Positions 6,441 to 29,566 of a stretch of 33,091 nucleotides of DNA are shown here, piece after piece. Every line of letters begins with the position of its first letter. Position 1 is the first letter of the stretch. A program made the translations under genes and the position numbers. Source of the DNA: Aduncisulcus paluster (taxonomy: Eukaryota); NCBI GenBank assembly GCA_024181965.1, contig BQXS01010833.1, positions 1 to 33,091 on the forward strand, given 5' to 3'. The notes below the pieces were generated by a model that was not told the origin of the DNA, searched no databases, and worked only from the letters and a program-made list of their open reading frames with translations.

Positions 6441-9400
6441 TTAGATAATATTTCCACAGCAAAATGTCCGTATCATGTCTTTGCACTGCTCTATTGATGA
6501 ACATTTTGAAGGATTCCACTTCAAAAATCTTTTCATTTGGAGAATTCTTTCCTTTTCCTTCTTCTCTTCTTCCTTACGAATATCGTCTTTGCCACAGGCC
6601 AATAAATGTTCAGCACGATCAACAACCATTGGACTCACCCCAGCACACACAGCACAAGAAGTGGCGAATGAACATGGTGAAATTCCAGGCTCGACGTGAT
6701 ATAAAAATGATATTTTAGGTGCTTTGGATGGAGCCTGTGAAGATTTAATTCTAGAATCAAATGAAATATCCATTCTTTTTCTCCCTTCTTCTTCCTCTTC
6801 CTCCTCTTCTCTTTGTATTTGGACGGACATTCTCATTCTTCTGATTCCTATCATTTCCCAGACATCAGGGGTCATTTCTCTGGACATTCTTGATCTAAAA
6901 ATAGATCCGTTCGATGACGACANNNNNNNNNNNNNNNNNNNNTATTTTAGGTGCTTTGGATGGAGCCTGTGAAGATTTAATTCTAGAATCAAATGAAATA
7001 TCCATTCTTTTTCTCCCTTCTTCTTCCTCTTCCTCCTCTTCTCTTTGTATTTGGACGGACATTCTCATTCTTCTGATTCCTATCATTTCCCAGACATCAG
7101 GGGTCATTTCTCTGGACATTCTTGATCTAAAAATAGATCCGTTCGATGACGACACTGATGTTGAATTCCATCTCATATCGTCCTTCCATGAACCAAACCC
7201 ACTCCCATCTATCCTGCTTTCGATGAGATCTGCACAAAGATCCTGGGCATGTTCTTGAAGCAAAGACATGGAATAGTGAGTAGTAATAAAAGAATAAACA
7301 CCACCATACGGAGAATCAGAACTCTGGCCAAGAGAGGAAGAGGAGGAAGAGGAGGAGTGATCATGAATCCCCATAAAACGTACAATCGAACTAAGAAGAC
7401 ACTCTCCATCAATTCCTTGTGTTGAAGTACCAAATTCATCAGCAAATACAAGTAAAGGATTGATTTGATTACCTATAGATGCATGATCAAAGGATGACCC
7501 GTCAAGAAGAGAAGAAGAAGAAGAGGAAGAAGAAGAGGGGGAGTGAATGACCCTCTCTTTCCGCTCTGATATTATTTGAAGGGCAGCACACATACGTGTC
7601 AATGCAGCTGTGAAAGAGGACTGGGCAGTATGTGTTGAAGGAGATAAGGAAGAGAGAGAAACGAATAGACGATCGGGTAGAGCATTGATATATCCTTGGG
7701 ATGACAACATTGGGGAAAAATTCAAGGAACTGCCGTCCCCTGTTTCCAAACCCAAGGTTACACAGCCTCGCCCAGGAAGACCTATTCCTATTCCACACAG
7801 GGCGATATTGAGCACAGCGCTTGTGCATAACTGTGTTTTCCCACTCATGTTTGGCCCAGATAGCATAAATATCGGTCTAGATGCACCAATATTGATAGAA
7901 GAAGGAGAATATGGCGTGTGAATGAGAGATGCAATCGGATGAATGATATTATTGAGATCCAGAGAAGGAGGACAAACATATGGGGATCTACCAATTAGAG
8001 AATCACCTTCTCTCACAGATCTACTTGAGTCTTTGTTTATCTTCACTTCACCAGCCCAACCATATTCCATGACAGCCACACAAAGTCCACAAATGGCATC
8101 CAACTGAATTACAGTCCGCCATACCTTTCGGATCAAGGAAATTCCAGACATAATGCTCGAAAATGTTGGAGCTCTACTACTTTTATCTATTTCTGAATGG
8201 GATAACGATTCTTTCGTTGTTTCGATAATACTTCGTTGAAGCTCTTTAACAGCCGCCACGACACTTCCATCGCAACACTGTGCGCGTGATTGGTCTGATG
8301 TCTCAGTGGTATCAAAACAATTCGACATATGCATGGGATCAGACATAGCTTCAGGCAACATTCCAGATTTATCAACCCATGGGGTATCAATATCATTATT
8401 ATGTCCAAGGGGTGATTTGAACTCACAACCTTCATCGACGTGGCAATGATCTCGCCCATGAATTGGAAGCATACCGTCCTTCACAACTCGTTGTACTTCT
8501 CTTTTGACCTCATCTTCGACATCTCCCATTCTTCTTTCAACATCCCCAAGCTGTTCATCCATCTCCGCCATTCTCGAACTCTTAAGGAAAGCATGAGACT
8601 TTGTACAGAAATGGAGCGAAAGACAAGCTCTCAGGGCTGAAATAGAGTGGATAAGGGGTACCAAGAGAGGAATAATCGATGATGGGGGCGCAGGAAGTTG
8701 CTCTGTATTATAAGCAGTATGAGTTTGAACTCTGCTATGTGAGGTTCTTGCAACTTTCTTCATCTCTCCATACCACAGATCACGGTACCATTTGGTCCCG
8801 TCGACACGAGAGATATCCATAGTTCCTCCGTCGTAACGATTGAAAAGCTTTTGCAAAGGATGCTCTTCTTCTTCTTCTTCTTCCTCTTCTTCCTTATGAA
8901 TTTCATTTTTACCATGTTTCTTGAGTGAGTGCCTCTTTTTCTCATGCAAAACTCCTTTTCTCTGCTCTTCTCTCGTGTCAAAATGAACGCAAACACAATA
9001 TCCAACCTGAGGGATGTACACAACAGACAGAGATCTAATCGAAGGTGGCAGCAAATGGTCCAGCATTTGAGGTAGTATCTGTGGAAAAGAATAGCGAGTG
9101 CTGGTGATAGGGGCTGTTTTAAGACCCATGATGGATGTTAAACTCTCTGATTCAATGCGAATGATCTCATTTCTCCATTGAATCACTTCTCTCCACTTCA
9201 TTGTGACTTCTCTGAGAACATGCTCTCCTTCTGTGGCCAGAAGAGTTGGAAGGGAGGTATGGAGCGAATGTAAGGAGTCGAGAAAAGGGAAGAAACCGGC
9301 TCGAATGGTCAAGATGGAGGCAGGAGTGCTCTGGGACGTGTCATTGGGAACAGTGGAAGTTCCTTTTTTATCCCTTTTAACCTGTGAGGACCCACTAACA

Positions 9401-10758
9401 TCGAATACGGCAGTAAGCAAAGATAAGAGGGGAAGGGCTTGGGGAAGCAATGACTTGAGTGAGGAAAATAGAGGAAAAGAGTCTGAATGTGGCAATAGAA
9501 GGGCAGTATTATGTTCGTCCTCTTTCGTGGAACCGGCAAAAGTTTTTTGTTTAGGTTTTCTCTTATTATCAAGTCCAAATCTTGCCGAACGCCCATCATC
9601 TATGTCTTGTACAAGGCGACAGCACCGACAAACTGAACCAAACATCATTATTAGCATTCTCCATTCTTTGTCTGTCAAAATATGGGTGCAAATGGAAGAA
9701 ATGAGAGAGTGCGAGGGAGAAAGCCCTTTAAGGGGACGAAGAGCTTGTCTCAAGGCAGATAATAGCGACGGGTGGTCCTTGAAATAGCACATTATGGCAT
9801 ATCTTGCACGAATAACGCCAATATCAAGGCTTGGACGACAGACCCAGAGCCTAATCAGATCACTACCGGCTTTTGTGATAGCCCTGTCAAGAATAGTGCA
9901 TAAAGACAGAGATTCTCTCGATGTTCCATGTGTTAATGAAGGATTGGGAACAACAGAAGAGGTTATTCCGAGCATTTGGGCACTTTTAGGATCAATGTGC
10001 ATGAAGGAAGGCACTGTCGTGATATGGATATGCATTGGAAGCCCATGTAAGACCTTATGATGAGATTTAGAAGAGTGTTTGGAGGCTAAAGGCGTTGAAA
10101 TAGGGGCATATTGATGTCGAGAAGGATGGCTTGAATGTGCAGAGGATGACCAATTATCATTGGGATTACCAACTCCATTAATTGCATTCGTTGATGCATC
10201 TCCTCGCAAAAATAGACAAAGTGCCCCTGCCGCACGGACTGCTACATCTGCACACAACTCTGTCAGGATGGCACGAGTACAAGTCAGAAGATGTTGCTGT
10301 TCGTTATCTTTTGAGAGCGTTTTCAAATCTAAAATGTCAAACATCTTGGAGGAATCCGTTGCAGAAGAGGGAGAATATGGAGTTAAACTTGATAAAGCGG
10401 GGAAGGCATTATCAAAATTAAATAATGATGAAGGAACCAATGTGATACAATCACCACCAAAAGCAAGCTTAATGAAATCAATAAGCTGGTGGGAAGCTGC
10501 TTTAGAGAGAATAAATTGTTCAGGATTGACCGGACGAAAAAATTGAACAATGGAAGACAAATCCATAATAAGATCAGGAATATCTGTTAAATGAATCACC
10601 CCATCACCGGGGGTATAATAAGCCAGACCAATCCTATTTGCATGGAAAAAAACAGAGGCAATGGCCTTATGACAAAACAAAATCAAGGTAAACAGGTAAG
10701 TAGTGAAGAAAATATTGTTGCAAATATTAAAAACTAGTAAAAAACCTACATCACTCAT
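6441..10758 (-). CDS. MSH5: MutS homolog, most similar to meiotic MSH5; about 1333 aa after removing an 84-nt intron and the 232-nt gap/duplication
   Basis: N-terminal IGLAYY...IHL; SLCTILDRAITKAGSDLIRLW..RP; VVYIPQVGY; Walker A SGPNMSGKT; QSSF; Walker B FADEFG.ST..IDG; TTHY; C-terminal FLYHVEPG...SFA...A..AG. ORFs 6895..10776 and 6441..6992 join once the duplicated segment around the N-run is collapsed. Confidence 0.87.
6711..7154. repeat. 212-nt exact direct repeat (6711-6922 = 6943-7154) flanking a 20-N gap (6923-6942); assembly overlap artefact
   Basis: Both copies run from TATTTTAGGTGC to TCGATGACGACA and abut the Ns; the 232-nt offset shifts the frame, and collapsing it restores the MSH5 ORF. 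Confidence 0.92.
10666..10749 (-). other. Spliceosomal intron (84 nt, phase 0) after codon 3 of MSH5
   Basis: ATG AGT GAT|GTAGGT...T-rich...CATAAG|GCC ATT GCC; removal gives MSD-AIASVFFHANRIGLAYY and eliminates an F/L/I-rich 28-codon stretch. It is in-frame and stop-free, so it is inferred from composition and splice sites. Confidence 0.75.
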
Positions 10759-11182
10759 AGATATGAATTCTGCCAAAATTGTTTAAGACTAAAATAGCTG
10801 GAATTGGGATTCAAGGATAATTCCACCAAACTAAACTCCACACAATTGGCGAAGAGTGTTAAATAAAATGGTCAAGTCACGGAATGCAAAATAAATATAA
10901 CATCACTTTCTTGAAAGTTGGATTAGGGCGAAATAAGGATGATTCAGAAGTTCCTGCCACTGGCAGAAAGTTGAAGTTCCGATTTGAAATCAGCCCAATA
11001 AAGACCCCCAAGTTTATTTTATTTTATTAAATAATTCAAAATAATATATTATTATCCTCCATTATACCGAGAACATAACATACTATGTTGCATCGGCTAG
11101 TAGCCTGCGACAAGAAATGATACAAGGAATTCTCTGACAAATAAATTTGATATAAATATTTTTATTGAACTATGCTTTACTA

Positions 11183-12866: not shown

Positions 12867-12987
12867 ACTTCAGATCCTGTGATATCGATGTGAGGACTGA
12901 AAGTCATCATCATCAAAAATGATTTTTGTAATTAGTGTAATTCTTTGCGTGTTGGTGTATTCCAATTTTGAGAATCAATCAAAATAC

Positions 12988-14634
12988 ATGTTGTCATCGA
13001 AATTTGAGTCGTTTTTTACTAAAAATCATGAGATTGTAAGAGTGGATTCAAATGGTTTGGCCCAGATTGGATTTACCAAGTTTGCGCTTCAAGGAAGTGA
13101 AGTTCCAAGTCAGCTCCTTTTTTCTAGGATTCCAGAGTATGCTTTTAAGGACATTCCATTTTCTGAACTTTCTTTTTCGTCTGGTAATCACACTCGTTTC
13201 TCAATTCCTGTTTCAGGACACGTTACTAATGTGAACAAAGGTCTGAAAAAGAATCCAGACGCTATTTTGAAGAGGATGATTGGTGGATCTCTGGATTCAG
13301 CATTTCTTCTCTCCGTTCAATTAGAAGACAGGAGTGACTTGGAATCCTTAATGTCTCAGGAAGAGTATGATCATTTTATTTCTTCTGGTGAAGCCATTTC
13401 ACAATCCAAGAAACCCCTTCTCGATATTATTGATGAGACAAAAGGTTCATCCATTGATCATGGGTTGGCTATTGCTTCTCACACAGCGTCTCACGATGCT
13501 GCCCAAAGTATGTTTTCATCAGTTATTACTGATCTAGAGAAGGAACTTGGTCCAGAAAAGGTTCTTTTCCCCCGAGAAATTATTTGGCTTGGTGGGGCTC
13601 CTGGTGCTGGAAAAGGTACGAACACTCCATTTATCTCCAAAGCCCGTGACATCTCCGCAAAACCAATCGTGATGTCCGATTTATTCAAGACTCCAGAGAT
13701 GCGTCGTTTGATGGATCAGGGTTTGTTGATCAACGATGGAGTTGTCCTCCGTCTCCTCATGAAAGAGCTATTAAAACCTAAATATAGAGATGGTGTGATC
13801 GTTGATGGTTTCCCACGTACTGCCACTCAAGGTGCATGTGTTGAATGCCTCCACCGTTACATGACTGAACAAAAGATCAGATATGAGGATACAGACATGG
13901 CTTCTTCCTTCGCTCAGCCCTTGTTCCGTATCGTTGTTCTCTATGTTAGTGAACATGTTGCCGTCGAGAGACAGTTAGGACGTGGAAAGAAGCAACTTGC
14001 TCACAATAAGCGTGTCGAGGAGACAGGAATTGGAGAGATACAAAAAGTTCGCGCCACTGATCTCGAACCCGAGTTAGCAAAGAAACGTTATCGGGTGTTT
14101 GAAGAAGAAACCCAGGAAGCTTTGTCATGTTTCCGGGAATTGTTTGATTACCACGTGATTGATGCCAACAGACCCATTGATCAGGTTGAAAAGGCCATTG
14201 AGGAGGAATTTAAGTATCAATCTTCACTAGAACTTGATGCTATTACTTTCGACTCAATCAGAAATATTCCTAGGAGTGTTGATCTCACCCGTCATGCGAG
14301 ACAACGCCTCGTGCGTCGTCTCGACACTTACCAACGAGACTTTAAGGGTGTATTCTCAAAAGTTATTTCGGTTATTGAGAATGAAATAGTTCCTACACTT
14401 CAAATTCATGCATTCTCTGGATGCGCTCGTGTCCGTGTGCGTGATACTGTTCTTGCAAAAGATTTGGCCGTCCAGATGCTTGTTGACATCATGGCTGATC
14501 GAGGATTTGCTGTGAAAGTTGATCGGAGAACAGCTCGTGATCCATCTCGCGTCAATATTGAGAGTGGTACCATTATTACTGATTTTAGAGATGAGTATAT
14601 CATGGATATTGAGTGGGCTGCCCCAACCCTGTAA
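12988..14634 (+). CDS. Fusion protein, 548 aa: glycine-cleavage H-protein-like domain + adenylate kinase with C-terminal extension
   Basis: N-part follows the GcvH pattern (FTKNHEIVRV..AQIGFTKFA...PVSGHVTNVNKGLKKNPDAI...LESLMSQEEYDHFI); C-part has P-loop GGAPGAGKGT and VDGFPRT. Likely start at ATG 12988 (MLSSKF); an upstream in-frame ATG exists at 12919. Confidence 0.88.
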   Translation: MLSSKFESFFTKNHEIVRVDSNGLAQIGFTKFALQGSEVPSQLLFSRIPEYAFKDIPFSELSFSSGNHTRFSIPVSGHVTNVNKGLKKNPDAILKRMIGGSLDSAFLLSVQLEDRSDLESLMSQEEYDHFISSGEAISQSKKPLLDIIDETKGSSIDHGLAIASHTASHDAAQSMFSSVITDLEKELGPEKVLFPREIIWLGGAPGAGKGTNTPFISKARDISAKPIVMSDLFKTPEMRRLMDQGLLINDGVVLRLLMKELLKPKYRDGVIVDGFPRTATQGACVECLHRYMTEQKIRYEDTDMASSFAQPLFRIVVLYVSEHVAVERQLGRGKKQLAHNKRVEETGIGEIQKVRATDLEPELAKKRYRVFEEETQEALSCFRELFDYHVIDANRPIDQVEKAIEEEFKYQSSLELDAITFDSIRNIPRSVDLTRHARQRLVRRLDTYQRDFKGVFSKVISVIENEIVPTLQIHAFSGCARVRVRDTVLAKDLAVQMLVDIMADRGFAVKVDRRTARDPSRVNIESGTIITDFRDEYIMDIEWAAPTL

Positions 14635-15925: not shown

Positions 15926-17662
15926 CTATTCTTCTTCAGATCGTATAATTTGTCCTCGTTTCAAAAGAGTATATAATTGAAGGATATCATGAGAATCAAA
16001 GCTATTTCCAGAAATGATCAATTCCTTGAGTTTCTTAAATTGCTGAAGGATCATCCGAATGTATATTATGGAATCTTCTGAGAACAGATTGTTGGACAAA
16101 TTGATAACTTTCAAACCGTTCACCCTTGAAAGAATCTCAAAGACATTTCTTCGAACACTCGTACGATTACCAAGAGCATTCCCAGAGAGGTCAAGAGTCT
16201 GAAGGCTTTGAAAGGATTCCCAATGGATGGAACTTAGATGAGACAAACACAAACCGAGTCCTTTGAAGTTAAGAGAAACAATATTGGGCATTTTCTTGAG
16301 TAAGGGGACCAAAATAGCAACAAACCGAGTCAAAATTGTGCGTGAAGGAGCAACAAAACCTTCAAAGGACACAGATTCCACACGATTCCATCCATTCTTC
16401 TCAACATGAGAGAGAAAACCTTTATATAGAACCATCTTATTCGAAGCTGACTCAGATTCAAAGAACTTCACAAATCTCCTCCGATCCCGTGACCAATCAT
16501 CCATCTTGACTTTCTTTGACTTTCTCATACTGGTTTTTTGTGGAGCATTCACAGTGGATGTTGTTTGTCTTCTTCGAGATGTTATCACAGAAGGCGACAT
16601 TATCAATGATCTTTGTTTCCCTTGCGTACCTTTCTCGTGCTTTTTCTGAGTTATTGGGACATCTGACTCTTTTCCTTCAGCCAACGATTCCAAATAGATA
16701 CACAAAGAATCTCTCTTCTTGCGAAGCTCTTCTCTTCTCTTCTTCTCTTCCTCTTTCCATTTAACTTTCAATTCATCATTCAGACTTGTCCACTTACCAA
16801 TTATAGCAGTCCTTCGTTTTCCACATATTTTCCCCTCTTCTTCTTCTTCTTCTTTCTCGTCTTCCTCATCTTTCCCATCTTTCTTGGCCCTGGTCAAAGC
16901 CTTTCTCCTTTCTCTCAAAAGGAACAATTTCAGTTCTTCTTCTGCCATCTTCTCTTCTGCGCCGCCATCGCCAAGCCATACCCAAGGATGTTTGCGATGA
17001 ACATGAAGAACCATGTCATCCACGCTCAGGCATTGGAAAGTGCATGTAACAACGGGGCACCGAATATGGGAAAAGTGTGGCGCGAAAGGGAAGAGAGGAG
17101 AGAGCAATGAGGAAGGAGTATGGAGAAAGGAAGAACATTGGGGACAAAACGAGGAAGAAAAAACAGGTTTAGAGTTGCTGAGAGAGGATTTATCAATACA
17201 ATCTCTGAAATATTGAGATGATTTTAAGACTCGACATTCGTCATGTCTCATTTCTCTCTCACGATCGCTAGAAATTGAGGAAGCATCAGCAACAACTTTG
17301 GGAGGGCAATGGACAATTCTAAAATGATTAACATTAAGACAGAGTAACATCCACATAAAAATGGGCACCGAATAATGAGGTAACCTTGGCATGGGTGAGG
17401 GGGCAGTCGGTGAAGTTTTCGATGAATCATCATTTCTAAAAATAGAATTTCTAAAAATAGTTCGGAATGGTACAATCAATCGTTTATCTGATGTATTTCC
17501 TTCAACACACAATGATACAGTGGGACTTCCGTCAAGAACACGTTGAGGAGAAATTGATTGAGATTTGTGAACTGGCAGTCTCTCACCAAATGGCATTGGA
17601 GTTGTCGAGTATATATATGGATTCGTACTTCCAGATATTCTTTGTTCAGAAGCAGAAGTCAT
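15926..17662 (-). CDS. Protein with C2H2-like zinc finger, coiled coil and C-terminal leucine-rich repeats (possibly 3' half of one gene with 17667..19340)
   Basis: CPVVTCTFQCLSVDDMVLHVHRKH; LRR consensus LQTLDLSGNAL, LKVINLSNNLF, LKELIISGNSF. ATG at 17662 lies 4 nt after the stop of the upstream ORF. Confidence 0.75.
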   Translation of the reverse strand: MTSASEQRISGSTNPYIYSTTPMPFGERLPVHKSQSISPQRVLDGSPTVSLCVEGNTSDKRLIVPFRTIFRNSIFRNDDSSKTSPTAPSPMPRLPHYSVPIFMWMLLCLNVNHFRIVHCPPKVVADASSISSDREREMRHDECRVLKSSQYFRDCIDKSSLSNSKPVFSSSFCPQCSSFLHTPSSLLSPLFPFAPHFSHIRCPVVTCTFQCLSVDDMVLHVHRKHPWVWLGDGGAEEKMAEEELKLFLLRERRKALTRAKKDGKDEEDEKEEEEEEGKICGKRRTAIIGKWTSLNDELKVKWKEEEKKRREELRKKRDSLCIYLESLAEGKESDVPITQKKHEKGTQGKQRSLIMSPSVITSRRRQTTSTVNAPQKTSMRKSKKVKMDDWSRDRRRFVKFFESESASNKMVLYKGFLSHVEKNGWNRVESVSFEGFVAPSRTILTRFVAILVPLLKKMPNIVSLNFKGLGLCLSHLSSIHWESFQSLQTLDLSGNALGNRTSVRRNVFEILSRVNGLKVINLSNNLFSEDSIIYIRMILQQFKKLKELIISGNSFDSHDILQLYTLLKRGQIIRSEEE

Positions 17663-17666
17663 TCCT

Positions 17667-17727
17667 TCAAGACCATTTAGCTGACATAGACGTCTTCTTC
17701 TCAAACGCTGTCTCCTCACAGGTTGAA

Positions 17728-17759
<32 letters not shown>

Positions 17760-19340
17760 AGAGGAAGACTCTTCATCATCTGGCGAAAAATCATCGGAAC
17801 CATCACTTTTTTCTTCCTCTTTCCCTTCCTTATCTCCATTTTTATCACCAACATGGGCAGTGGGGGATTTGGAAAGGTCATCACCTCGTCTAACATCACT
17901 CTCAGAGGACTCAGCTTCAATGTCATCAATGTTTGTCTTTCTATGTTCAATTTCTCGCTTTCTATCTGCATATTTCTTCAAGTATTCAATGATATTCGCT
18001 TCTTTTGAAAGGAATTGAGATCTTTTTCTTGAACGAACTTCACAAAGAAGGCTTTGAGAGTCTTTGTCTGAATGATTTTTAACATGTTGTCCTCCCGACA
18101 ACGAATTAATTTCCCCACTAGAAGCTCCTTTTAGATCCTTGGTAACTTTAACTTTAGCTTTTTGGGATAGTGATGGATATGACAGGCTCTTTCGAATGGT
18201 ATCTAATTTATCTCTCAAAGATGAATGCTCAAGGGAGAGTGCATCGATGTCCTCACTATCTAAACTCAATGTAATGAAAGGGAATACTTTCTCAAACGAA
18301 CTATTAATAACCTTTTCTGGAACATCACTCATCCATCCTCCACATATCCAACGATTTATGAACATTTGGACGTGTTCTTCGATGTGTAGTTGGAACGTAT
18401 ATAAAGAAGGGAGAGAAGGGAGAGGAAAAGACAATGAACAAATTGGACACACAATATAAGGCTCTGACGCATGGCCCAATGTGTGAACACTCTCATAGGA
18501 ATAGGATCTAACCACTTGGTGTGAAATGGAATGAAATAAATCTTGAGAAAGTGCAATGAATTGATACAGAGATTCGTTGAGATAAGACCCGGATAAATTC
18601 TCAGTTGAAGGCTTTTTATGCCGATTTAACTCATCAATAAACATGATACACGCGATATTATCACACATTCTTCGGATCTTTGCTGACCACACGGTGGTGA
18701 ATCGTTCAAAGTTAGAGGCAATATTGTGAGCAAGTGAAATAACACATGGAATATGAGCATTAATAAGATCAAAAGCTGGTTTATCAATATAAGAGCGAAC
18801 CATACTAAGCTGATGAGCCAATCTTTCGCCAATAAACTGTGTATTCCGAGTGTAGCTCAGTGGAATCTTTGTTTCTGCAAAATGAGGGAATGGATCATCA
18901 ACTGAAGTTTCATCCGCATCGTACCTCGAAGAGTCATTATCTATTTCGACTGTAGAATCTGAATAAGCGTTATATACGGGAATATTTGAAGGGGTAGCAA
19001 CCGGAGGAGATGAAGAGGAATATGTAGCACCTTTTTGCCTATGTTTACGCTTTTGACCCTTTTTCCTGACACGGCTATTCATAGGAGTCGGAGTGGAAAG
19101 CCTTGATAAATCAGATGAATCTAGAGATGGATCAATACGATAAATATCGTGAACAAGTTTTTCTTCAGGTAATAATAGGGAAGATGATATACATGATAAT
19201 ATTTGTTTTGTTTCCTCCTTTGAAACTAGAAAATAATACGAAAGTTTTTCCAATAAAGCATCAGAATAGATAACTCGCGGTGGAGCCTTTTTAGTCTTGG
19301 GTATAGTGATATCTGGAAGATGACTGAAACTTTTATCCAT
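17667..19340 (-). CDS. Hypothetical Ser-rich protein with a C2H2-like zinc finger (possibly 5' half of one gene with 15926..17662)
   Basis: 557-aa ORF; CPICSLSF...FQLHIEEH; acidic/poly-Ser tail; start uncertain. Confidence 0.72.
17725..17766. repeat. (GAA)n/(TTC)n microsatellite encoding poly-Ser on the minus strand
   Basis: About 14 GAA/GAG triplets; similar tracts encode poly-Glu or poly-Ser in MSH5 (e.g. near 8865-8892, 7504-7536) and the cullin. Confidence 0.9.
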
Positions 19341-25977: not shown

Positions 25978-26890
25978 TCACATGACAATGGTTGGAGAAA
26001 CATTCTCGCCTCCTGGTCCATGAACGGCTTCTTTGACATATTTGAGACACCTTTTCCTTTCAACGGCACTGGGTGGTTTCACTCCTTCAAGAATATACTC
26101 CAGGCCCATTTCCTTCCACTTTTTCTTTCCAAGAGTATGGTAAGGCAATAATTCTACTCTCTGGAAATTCTCATTTCCCTTATTTTTCAATATATACTTG
26201 ACCATTAAATCTAAACTCTCATCATCTGTTGTATAACCTGGAATAAGGACATATTGTAACCATACTTTGACACCACGGGAGATGCAGAGCTCAATAAACT
26301 GAAGAGACCTGTCAAGACCATCTGCACGGGCAAGTTTCTTGTACATATCACGATCAAAATGCTTAACACACACGATAGCAAAATCTGAGTGAGGGATAAC
26401 ACTTTCCCAGGAAGCACGGCTTCCAATTCCACTTGTGGCAATACAAGTGGTTAAGCCAATATCGTGAACTCGTTGGAAAAGCTTGGCCACAAATTTATGT
26501 TGCAACAAAGGATCACCACCAGACACAGAAACTCCACCTGGATAGGTCTTCAAAAAGGGCTTTTTACGTTCAATATCTTTCATGAGGTGATCAACTGTGG
26601 TTTCTTTTCCTGAAGTTAAACATAAAGTATCAGGATTGCAACAGAATATACAACGGAGAGCACACCCTGTAAGGAAAATTAAGTAACGCATACCAGGTCC
26701 ATCAACAGCTGACATACTTTCAATAGAATGGACATATGCAGCATCACCAGTAGAAATAAGACTCTTTGTTTTTGGTTCTTGTCTTTCTACCCTGCAGAAT
26801 GAAATATGAGAATACATTCAATATATAAAATAAAGAAAGGCATTAATCCACATACACAACTTCTTCCACATCATAGGAACTAATTTCCAT
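25978..26890 (-). CDS. pflA: Pyruvate formate-lyase activating enzyme (glycyl-radical enzyme activase, radical SAM), 282 aa; exons 26890-26856 and 26791-25978
   Basis: VHSIES..AVDGPGMRY.IFL.GC.LRC.FC.NPDT (CxxxCxxC), GGVSVSGGDPLLQ, YVLIPGYT, VELLPYHTLGKKKW...Y.L..VKPP, collinear with bacterial PflA. Splicing gives MEISSYDVEEVV-VERQEP in frame. Confidence 0.93.
26792..26855 (-). other. Spliceosomal intron (64 nt, phase 2) in the PFL activase gene
   Basis: GT|GTATGT...AT-rich...TTCTGCAG|G; removal joins ATG 26890 to the PflA frame. Confidence 0.85.
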
Positions 26891-28087: not shown

Positions 28088-29566
28088 ATGTCAGACTCAG
28101 CAGAAAGACCTTGGATAACTACTTTAAAACCCATTTTAAAACTTCTTCCTGAGGTTGAAGCTCCAACTAAACAAGTGGCATTAATAGAGAGATGTATTTG
28201 GACTTTAGTCACTCTACTGATTTATTTAATTGCTGGTCAAATCCCATTATATGGTGTTTTGAATACAGATAAAGATTATTTACAGTGGCTCAGGACGCTC
28301 ATGGCTGCCAATCGCGGGACGCTGACTGAATTAGGTATGGGTCCACAAATGATGGGTCAAATGTTTACAACTGTCCTATCTAGACTTGGAGTCATTGGAG
28401 TTAATCGTCATATTCCTTCAGAACGTGCTGCTCTCATTTCATTGAACAAACTGGCTTCATTGGGTTTTACAACTATTCAAGCTTCTGTCCAAGTATATGC
28501 TGGAATGTATGGTCCTTTCGCATCCATTGGTATTGGAAAAGCTTGTTTAATTGTTGCTCAACTGGTTTTTGCTTCCTTGTTAGTTATGCTCCTATCAGAG
28601 ATCTTGGAGAAAGGTTGGGGTCTTGGAAAGATTATTGGAGCTTCATTATTCCAAACTGCAAATGTATGTGAGCAGATTATGTCCAAAACTGTTTCTTTTG
28701 CATACCAGAGTGGAACTGAAAGAGGTACTGAGTATACTGGTTGTCTCATAAACCTTGGTCACAAGTTAATGACACAGAAAAACTGGAAACATGCTCTTCA
28801 TGACGCCTTTTTCCGGTCTCACTTGCCAAATATGACTGAGTTTGTGTGCACCGTTCTTTTGTTCGGTTTAATTATCTTTTTCCATGGTATGCAATCCTCA
28901 ATTCGTCTCAAGAAGGCCAATGCTCCCGGAAGAAGTGGTTTAATATCATATCCCATTAAATTATTGAGCGGAACGGGTACTCCTGCCCTTATTTACCAGA
29001 CCATCACCACATACTTCCTTTCCTTCTCTCAGAGGCTCTTCCACCAGCTTGGAACCTCCTCTTCTTCTGCCTCTCGGTTGGTCGCCTCTCTTGTTGGAAC
29101 ATGGGAACAAGCTGAAGATACAATTGGCTCAAAACCCATGGCCTATCCCACTGGTGGTCTTGCTTATTTCATTACCCCGCCTTCATCAATCCACTCTGCA
29201 ATCATGCACCCTCTTCACTTCCTCGGATATCTTGTTCTTACTTGCATTTGTAGTGCCTATCTAAGTAAGTTTTGGGCCAAATTCCAGGGACAAGATGTCA
29301 ACAATGTTCGCAGAGAATTGAGTCAAAGTGGTCTGATGATGCCTGGAATGAGGCTTCAAATGTTCACAAAGGTGCTTTCAAGATACATTACACCCGCTAT
29401 CATTGTTGGAGGTGGACTCTATGGTCTAATCACAACTCTCTCAGGTGTATGTGGATGTTTTGGTGGTGGTAGTGGATTGTTTATAGCCACAAATACAATT
29501 CTTAAGTTGTATGAGGAGGGTATGGAAGTTCATAAGGCTGATCTCAAGGAGAGGAAGGCTATATAA
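28088..29566 (+). CDS. SEC61A: Sec61 alpha subunit (SecY family), divergent, 492 aa
   Basis: LLPEVEAP, QIPLYG, ANRGTLTELG, LLSEILEKGWGLG, TERGTEYTG, FFRSHLPN, YPIKL, PTGGLAYFITPP, LSRYITPA; about 10 hydrophobic segments. Confidence 0.93.
   Translation: MSDSAERPWITTLKPILKLLPEVEAPTKQVALIERCIWTLVTLLIYLIAGQIPLYGVLNTDKDYLQWLRTLMAANRGTLTELGMGPQMMGQMFTTVLSRLGVIGVNRHIPSERAALISLNKLASLGFTTIQASVQVYAGMYGPFASIGIGKACLIVAQLVFASLLVMLLSEILEKGWGLGKIIGASLFQTANVCEQIMSKTVSFAYQSGTERGTEYTGCLINLGHKLMTQKNWKHALHDAFFRSHLPNMTEFVCTVLLFGLIIFFHGMQSSIRLKKANAPGRSGLISYPIKLLSGTGTPALIYQTITTYFLSFSQRLFHQLGTSSSSASRLVASLVGTWEQAEDTIGSKPMAYPTGGLAYFITPPSSIHSAIMHPLHFLGYLVLTCICSAYLSKFWAKFQGQDVNNVRRELSQSGLMMPGMRLQMFTKVLSRYITPAIIVGGGLYGLITTLSGVCGCFGGGSGLFIATNTILKLYEEGMEVHKADLKERKAI

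Follow-up and report, generated by a model that had tools for sequence, protein, structure and literature searches.

A predicted fusion of a lysine-less H-protein-like domain with a bacterial-type long adenylate kinase-like protein in a protist contig

The 33,091-nucleotide contig BQXS01010833.1 (the whole of which is referred to below as the window) contains a forward-strand gene whose predicted product, designated P0001, joins two known folds: an N-terminal domain like the glycine cleavage system's H-protein (GcvH), and a P-loop kinase of the adenylate kinase (ADK) family. A linker separates the two, and a further domain follows the kinase core. The H-like domain lacks the lysine that carries lipoate in H-proteins; the remainder of the protein, linker excepted, corresponds to an uncharacterized family of long bacterial ADK-like proteins.

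Gene structure

The frame is open from 12919 to 14634 on the forward strand, and translation from the ATG at 12988 yields the 548 amino acids of P0001 (Table 1), with no stop codon between the two domains. An earlier examination of the DNA letters (the sequence-only reading) had proposed an in-frame fusion of an H-like domain and a kinase by way of a linker, and this is what is found: a single frame of 548 codons without an internal stop. Another in-frame ATG upstream would add 23 hydrophobic residues resembling a membrane anchor. In pairwise alignment, however, a homologous protein from Aduncisulcus paluster, P0164, begins at the methionine equivalent to position 12988, which is therefore favored as the start; the upstream stretch is, from this comparison, probably untranslated.

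Table 1. Positions of the fusion gene and its parts in the window.
Feature	Residues of P0001	Position	Strand	Basis or remarks
Upstream in-frame ATG extension		12919-12987	+	Adds 23 hydrophobic residues; membrane-anchor-like
Coding sequence of the fusion protein	1-548	12988..14634	+	548 amino acids plus stop; reading of the open frame
GcvH-fold domain	10-132	13015..13383	+	Pfam GCV_H, PDB sequence matches, AlphaFold2, Foldseek
Hairpin turn SFSSG, replacing ESVK	62-66	13171..13185	+	Alignments; one residue longer than in H-proteins
Linker	135-172	13390..13503	+	33% identity to P0164; poorly conserved
ADK-family kinase core	173-405	13504..14202	+	Pfam ADK; PDB adenylate kinases; alignment A7
P-loop GGAPGAGKGT	202-211	13591-13620	+	Motif
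DGFPRT	273-278	13804-13821	+	Motif
C-terminal domain	406-548	14203..14631	+	Alignments A4 and A7; AlphaFold2

The H-protein-like domain

The N-terminal part had been likened to GcvH by eye, and the profile search agrees: residues 10-132 align to positions 3-120 of the 122 in the Pfam GCV_H profile, at 38.9 bits for the whole protein and 43.9 bits when the domain is searched by itself (cut-off 22.2). The NCBIfam gcvH equivalog model TIGR00527 is far from its cut-off (38.9 bits vs. 115.85). When the N-terminal 140 residues are compared to PDB sequences with phmmer, H-proteins make up 10 of the 12 matches at E ≤ 1, the best being from mouse (2edg, 1.6e-9) and cattle (3klr, 2.1e-9). E-values differ with the source of the H-protein (mammal 1.6e-9, E. 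coli 2.9e-5, pea 0.015), a spread that does not decide between a paralogue of the host's own H-protein and a transferred one.

Structure prediction points the same way. For residues 1-140, AlphaFold2 supplied with 34 GcvH relatives gave a model whose mean predicted local distance difference test score (pLDDT) is 88.1, and all 22 of its Foldseek matches in the PDB at E ≤ 0.001 are H-proteins or GcvH-L. The model superposes on an H-protein, the bovine 3klr being the best match (template modeling scores 0.78/0.87, root mean square deviation 2.2 Å, 128 columns); an Atlas search was in agreement. The N- and C-terminal domains were modeled separately; the Atlas full-length model has a predicted template modeling score of 0.47. 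On these models, the N-terminal domain very probably adopts the full H-protein (hybrid barrel-sandwich) fold, without lipoate.

In every alignment the ESVK of the lipoylation site gives way to SFSSG, with no lysine in the turn, in agreement with what had been noted from the DNA letters. The lipoyl-lysine column falls at S64/S65 in the HMMER alignment or at G66 in the MAFFT alignment, and there are no lysines at all between K54 and K84. The glutamate of ESVK, present in 28 of 34 aligned relatives, is a serine in P0001; the nearly invariant tryptophan of the GW column is F106, preceded by a four-residue insertion. Compared to the bovine (3KLR), human (8UGO chain E), and E. coli (3A7L) H-proteins, the fold is the same across the whole domain, and P0001 keeps the columns of H14, G28, P49, P74, G77, N83, and Y127, but it differs in the missing lipoyl lysine, the extra residue in the turn, the phenylalanine for tryptophan, and the attached kinase. 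Without lipoyl-lysine, an H-protein has no chemical means of passing the aminomethyl group among the P, T, and L proteins. Because it has no acceptor lysine, the N domain of P0001 should be unable to carry a lipoyl or aminomethyl group.

Relatives of the N domain were sought among representatives of a 1.84-billion-protein library, with 44 matches; a word-based search with the domain alone returned none. Five of the 44 (P0121-P0124 and P0147) were judged false, being tandem-repeat or low-complexity sequences matched in seven to nine short stretches. The other 39 consist of 38 GcvH-type proteins of 113-242 amino acids and one protein from A. paluster, P0002, the sole kinase-bearing match of the 44. 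The alignment used here (A2) holds the 34 nearest single-domain GcvH relatives, with P0129, P0151, P0162, and P0163 left out. A lysine occupies the lipoyl column in 24 of these. The ten without one (P0126, P0128, P0130, P0141, P0148, P0150, P0153, P0159, P0160, and P0161) are small metagenomic GcvH-like proteins, several of them ending in long acidic C-terminal tails. Lysine-less GcvH-like proteins appear, to judge by this alignment, not to be rare, and to constitute an unstudied class of H-fold proteins.

The H fold has been recruited outside glycine cleavage in at least two other settings, as GcvH-L in Streptococcus and Staphylococcus (5A35, which the N-domain model matches in Foldseek at E 3.2e-6) and as LbpA in sulfur oxidizers. 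Both of these are described as lipoylated carriers (PMC12440151, PMC6067878), while the H-like domain of P0001 has no acceptor lysine.

The kinase core and C-terminal domain

Both motifs that the sequence-only reading had located in the second half of the protein, the P-loop and DGFPRT, are present as claimed. Pfam ADK matches residues 203-381 with 48.6 bits (cut-off 26.8), and PDB adenylate kinases match residues 200-408 at E-values of 9e-11 to 1e-9. Four arginines of the LID segment (R328, R332, R355, and R367) align to those of Aquifex Adk and are invariant in the family described below; we take them to be the catalytic arginines of textbook adenylate kinase. Compared to canonical adenylate kinases (Aquifex 2RGX/4JLO, human AK2 2C9Y), P0001 shares the P-loop, DGFPR, and a long-type LID with its arginines, but its nucleoside monophosphate (NMP)-binding segment is shorter and lacks the GDxxR arginine, and it has about 30 extra N-terminal and 140 extra C-terminal residues. 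The earlier description of this half as an "intact adenylate kinase" thus oversimplifies: the P-loop, DGFPR, and the Pfam match agree with it, but the NCBIfam adenylate kinase models are all far below cut-off, some 140 C-terminal residues had been overlooked, and this half belongs with the distinct bacterial family described below rather than with canonical adenylate kinase.

Those residues form a domain with the motifs YQSSLEL, RxxLVRRLD, and (E/D)RG, modeled by AlphaFold2 (pLDDT 87.6) as helices followed by a beta-alpha-beta-beta unit. It has no Pfam match; a Foldseek search against the PDB found nothing at E ≤ 0.001, the best match being Alba/SpoVS-like at 1.4e-2; and the best Z in a wide VIA-align search was 6.8 (an R3H domain), within the range common for unmatched models. 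A predicted complex of the N domain and the kinase module scored 0.00, in a run without controls or family alignments.

A bacterial family of long adenylate kinase-like proteins

From about residue 172 to its end at 548, P0001 is colinear with an uncharacterized family of bacterial proteins of about 400 amino acids, at 43-50% identity over some 370-380 residues; the colinear stretch starts some 30 residues ahead of the P-loop and continues for about 140 past the kinase core. Among the 120 matches listed for the full-length query, all 118 other than P0001 and P0002 are 373-444 amino acids long, the named ones being bacterial "nucleoside monophosphate kinases." There is no further fused form among these 120: PF01597 is found only in P0001. 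The family occurs chiefly in Verrucomicrobiota and Planctomycetota; thirty full-length loci (L001-L030) come from these two groups, from Latescibacterota and Acidobacteriota, and from one gammaproteobacterial bin. No model specific to the family was found in Pfam or NCBIfam, and no description of it in the literature searched.

In an alignment (A7) of 44 bacterial members and the two eukaryotic sequences, the invariant positions of the kinase core (P0001 numbering) are GxAPGxGKGT (G202-T211), DGFPR (D273-R277), R328, R332, R355, D358, and R367. The C-terminal domain is equally a family trait, with Y410, S412, E415, L416, R438, V442, R444, L445, G478, D500, R505, and G506 invariant. P0001 thus has in common with the bacterial proteins (P0011, P0003, and those of the 30 loci) an N-terminal helix, the kinase core, the LID arginines, and the C-terminal motifs; the eukaryotic pair differs in adding the H-like domain, which none of the 44 aligned bacterial members has, in sitting on a long stem, and in lacking the bacterial C-terminal ...IRRG tail.

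The 30 loci do not share a conserved operon. The commonest neighbor cluster, an M29 peptidase, occurs at five of them, followed by LpxK at four and by a pseudouridine synthase and adenosine deaminase at three each. Clustering of open reading frames recovered the family member itself at 24 of the loci, and these 24 were taken into the tree discussed below.

Fifteen host genomes (G001-G015) were scanned with PF00406. In eight, nothing but the long protein scores above cut-off, and one of the eight is assembled as a single chromosome of 7.3 Mb; in six others a strong canonical match accompanies it, and one is ambiguous. The same search found a match in all 14 reference genomes used as controls, and a TIGR01351 scan agreed for the first five host genomes. 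Adenylate kinase is near-universal. Since the long protein is so often the only PF00406 match, it may be the housekeeping adenylate kinase of some of its hosts, and the survey suggests that the family can serve as such; against this, the genomes are mostly metagenome bins whose completeness was not established. The family is a large and unstudied one, and it appears to stand in for canonical Adk in roughly half of the sampled genomes.

In a quick tree built by maximum likelihood from 45 rows, the two eukaryotic sequences are sisters (SH-like approximate likelihood ratio test 100), and a 97% branch separates them, together with 11 unnamed matches of bacterial length, from the 32 other rows. The argument for transfer from bacteria is one of numbers, with thousands of bacterial members and two protist sequences, and the kinase module is probably of bacterial origin; the tree itself is unrooted and the eukaryotic stem long (1.3), so that nesting inside the bacteria is not proven, and this counts against the reading.

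A second fusion sequence

The best match to P0001 is the A. paluster protein P0002 (460 amino acids), which starts at the position of residue 86, within the H-like domain. Its 90% cluster includes P0164 (GKT27693.1, 546 amino acids, annotated as a "putative multi-domain containing protein"), which aligns to P0001 from end to end at 61% identity and scores above both Pfam cut-offs (GCV_H 29.8 bits, ADK 48.2 bits). The two have the same three parts, the same start, and the same FSSG at the hairpin, but the linker differs in sequence and length. An identical copy of P0164 is present both in NCBI, where it is genome-derived, and in EukProt (Carplike_NY0171...p1). The ".p1" ending resembles that of a TransDecoder peptide, and presumably derives from a transcriptome. 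According to the A. paluster genome announcement, strain NY0171 had been represented by transcriptome data only until then. The EukProt-type entry and this earlier transcriptome-only record are indirect support for a single mRNA.

The second sequence bears on whether the fusion might be an artefact, with an H-like gene and a neighboring kinase gene read as one. The shorter A. paluster model P0002 could be taken to favor this, but in the window 1,647 nt run without a stop, with both halves in one frame; the sole run of Ns (6923-6942) is far off; and a colinear fusion is found at a second, 61%-identical locus, its full-length form being in EukProt as well. Misreading of two genes is accordingly very improbable, and close to refuted; with high confidence the fusion is a single genuine gene, belonging to an anaerobic protist of fornicate type.

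The sequence-only reading knew of no described protein with this architecture. The literature search likewise gave no paper on a GcvH-kinase fusion or on P0164 (supplementary tables were outside its reach), although the same fusion was already public, as A. paluster GKT27693.1. Both sequences were available under generic names; the fusion is of two known folds, one degenerate.

Identity between P0001 and P0164 is unevenly distributed: 71% in the kinase core (166/233), 65% in the C-terminal domain (93/143), 50% in the N domain (67/133), and 33% in the linker (11/33, with 7 gap columns). By this measure the H-like domain is under constraint, though less so than the enzyme part. The pattern can be read in another way, in which the transferred bacterial gene for the kinase was inserted, in frame, downstream of a second copy of the H-protein gene and took over the promoter and start codon of that copy, the H part being a slowly decaying passenger or at most an aid to folding or solubility. 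All the hallmarks of a carrier are gone, the N domain is at 50% where the other folded parts are at 65-71%, the bacterial homologues function without an H-like domain, and the gene model for P0002 begins inside it. Yet after about 39% divergence both copies still exceed the GCV_H cut-off (38.9 and 29.8 bits); FSSG and long identical runs, QLLFSRIPE and ISSGEA among them, are kept in both; the adjacent linker has fallen to 33% identity, with insertions and deletions; and the frame is intact in both. A passenger origin of this kind seems improbable to us.

Conservation of FSSG raises a more specific idea: that its serines have replaced the lysine as acceptor and receive a phosphate or some other modification from the P-loop kinase fused to them, so that the H-like domain is an intramolecular substrate or switch. 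The motif stands at the position of the swinging arm and is identical in the two proteins, and the kinase family has an unusual NMP-binding segment. The bacterial family, however, shares that segment without having any H domain, and we know of no ADK-family enzyme that phosphorylates proteins. The proposal is a highly unlikely one.

Possible functions

The reading somewhat preferred here is that a laterally acquired bacterial long ADK-type kinase has been fused to a degenerate, constrained paralogue of H-protein. The kinase core and C-terminal domain would have come by lateral transfer from bacteria of the Planctomycetes-Verrucomicrobia-Chlamydiae type, later taking on a host-like base composition. 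Since the P-loop, DGFPR, and LID arginines are kept, the kinase half would catalyze ATP + AMP <-> 2 ADP or some closely similar phosphorylation of an NMP; adenylate or NMP kinase activity is, on these motifs, reasonably likely. The H-like half would have been kept under selection as a folded, non-catalytic appendage, a putative protein-binding or regulatory module for the kinase. A role for it in partner binding or regulation is a slightly better supposition than its being a neutral leftover.

Several observations weigh against this reading, in addition to the unrooted tree, its long eukaryotic stem, and the bins of uncertain completeness mentioned above. None of the 20 NCBIfam adenylate kinase models listed reaches its cut-off, nor does the UMP-CMP kinase model, the best being TIGR01351 at 72.8 against 168. 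In Aquifex Adk the NMP-binding segment GDILR contains an arginine whose counterpart in P0001 is M230, and none of the 46 rows of A7 has arginine at that position; given its absence, the phosphoryl acceptor could differ from AMP. The N domain is the least conserved of the folded parts, and the fusion is seen in just two sequences, from one fornicate lineage. These two may moreover come from a single genome, as paralogues, and not from two species, as orthologues: a search with the Sec61alpha encoded in the window found no A. paluster-labeled orthologue, the best other match being 36% identical.

If the H-like domain does bind a partner, the sequence-only suggestion that it docks the kinase onto glycine cleavage or lipoylation comes to mind. 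Here the H domain would still bind P, T, or L protein or lipoate ligase, tethering adenylate kinase in the organelle and coupling AMP/ADP/ATP turnover to these pathways. The H fold is kept at high model confidence, and the N domain is more conserved than the linker. Partners of H-protein recognize the lysine-bearing hairpin, however, and this has been rebuilt in P0001 (E, V, and K replaced, and one residue inserted), with phenylalanine in the W106 column. There is also no evident signal for import into an organelle: both fusion proteins start no more than eight residues before (F/Y)TKxHE, the conserved start of the H fold, and so have no N-terminal extension, as against extensions of tens of residues in seven of the 34 aligned GcvH proteins. 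Metamonads are known to use short or internal targeting signals, so import is still conceivable. In published work, the glycine cleavage system and SHMT are placed in the organelles of non-diplomonad fornicates (PMC11316075), and a lipoate ligase in that of Paratrimastix (PMC9746703). Taken together, organelle docking of this kind is rather unlikely; and even supposing that the domain has a binding or regulatory role, a partner from glycine cleavage or lipoylation is not to be expected, if somewhat easier to entertain.

A bolder version would make the domain a pseudo-carrier, its H docking surface kept and its lipoyl arm turned into the FSSG loop, so that the domain either plugs the kinase into glycine-cleavage or lipoate-ligase machinery of the reduced mitochondrion, there to recycle AMP or ADP, or offers the serines of the loop as a kinase-controlled switch. 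This is speculative and distinctly improbable; if true, it would be a first case in which the fold of H-protein has been put to new use as an adaptor serving nucleotide homeostasis in an organelle of an anaerobe. More generally, should the H-like domain turn out to work as an adaptor, it would show that a cofactor carrier that has lost its function can find a second use in docking, and that a gene fusion can wire a transferred bacterial enzyme into a protist's reduced mitochondrial metabolism.

Neighboring genes

The gene for EF-1alpha lies 416 bp upstream of the fusion gene, on the opposite strand. Elsewhere the contig encodes a class II aminoacyl-tRNA synthetase, RFC1 with a BRCT domain, a MutS-like protein, a cullin, a GDPD protein, a radical-SAM activase-like protein, and Sec61alpha. 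G+C content at third codon positions is 0.32-0.41 across the four parts of the fusion gene; the neighbors are at 0.315-0.39, and EF-1alpha at 0.565. With eukaryotic neighbors, matching third-position composition, and the one run of Ns at a distance, contamination or a chimeric join is unlikely.

Some of these neighbors have features of their own. The 278-amino-acid product of 25978-26817 (reverse strand) combines Fer4_12 and Radical_SAM, the architecture of a glycyl-radical-enzyme activase, and may be a further bacterial-type gene for anaerobic metabolism in this protist. Sec61alpha (28088-29566, forward strand) is highly divergent, the figure given above for its best other match being from among 5.8 billion proteins. 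The 1,292-amino-acid frame at 6895-10776 (reverse strand) has MutS domain III as its single Pfam match and a 20-base assembly gap near its 3' end; it may represent a divergent or partial MutS homologue. Finally, two long reverse-strand frames, at 15926-17971 and 17667-19340, share about 300 nt, and one has weak leucine-rich repeat matches; they could be a single gene interrupted by an intron or frameshift, or two genes whose limits are misplaced.

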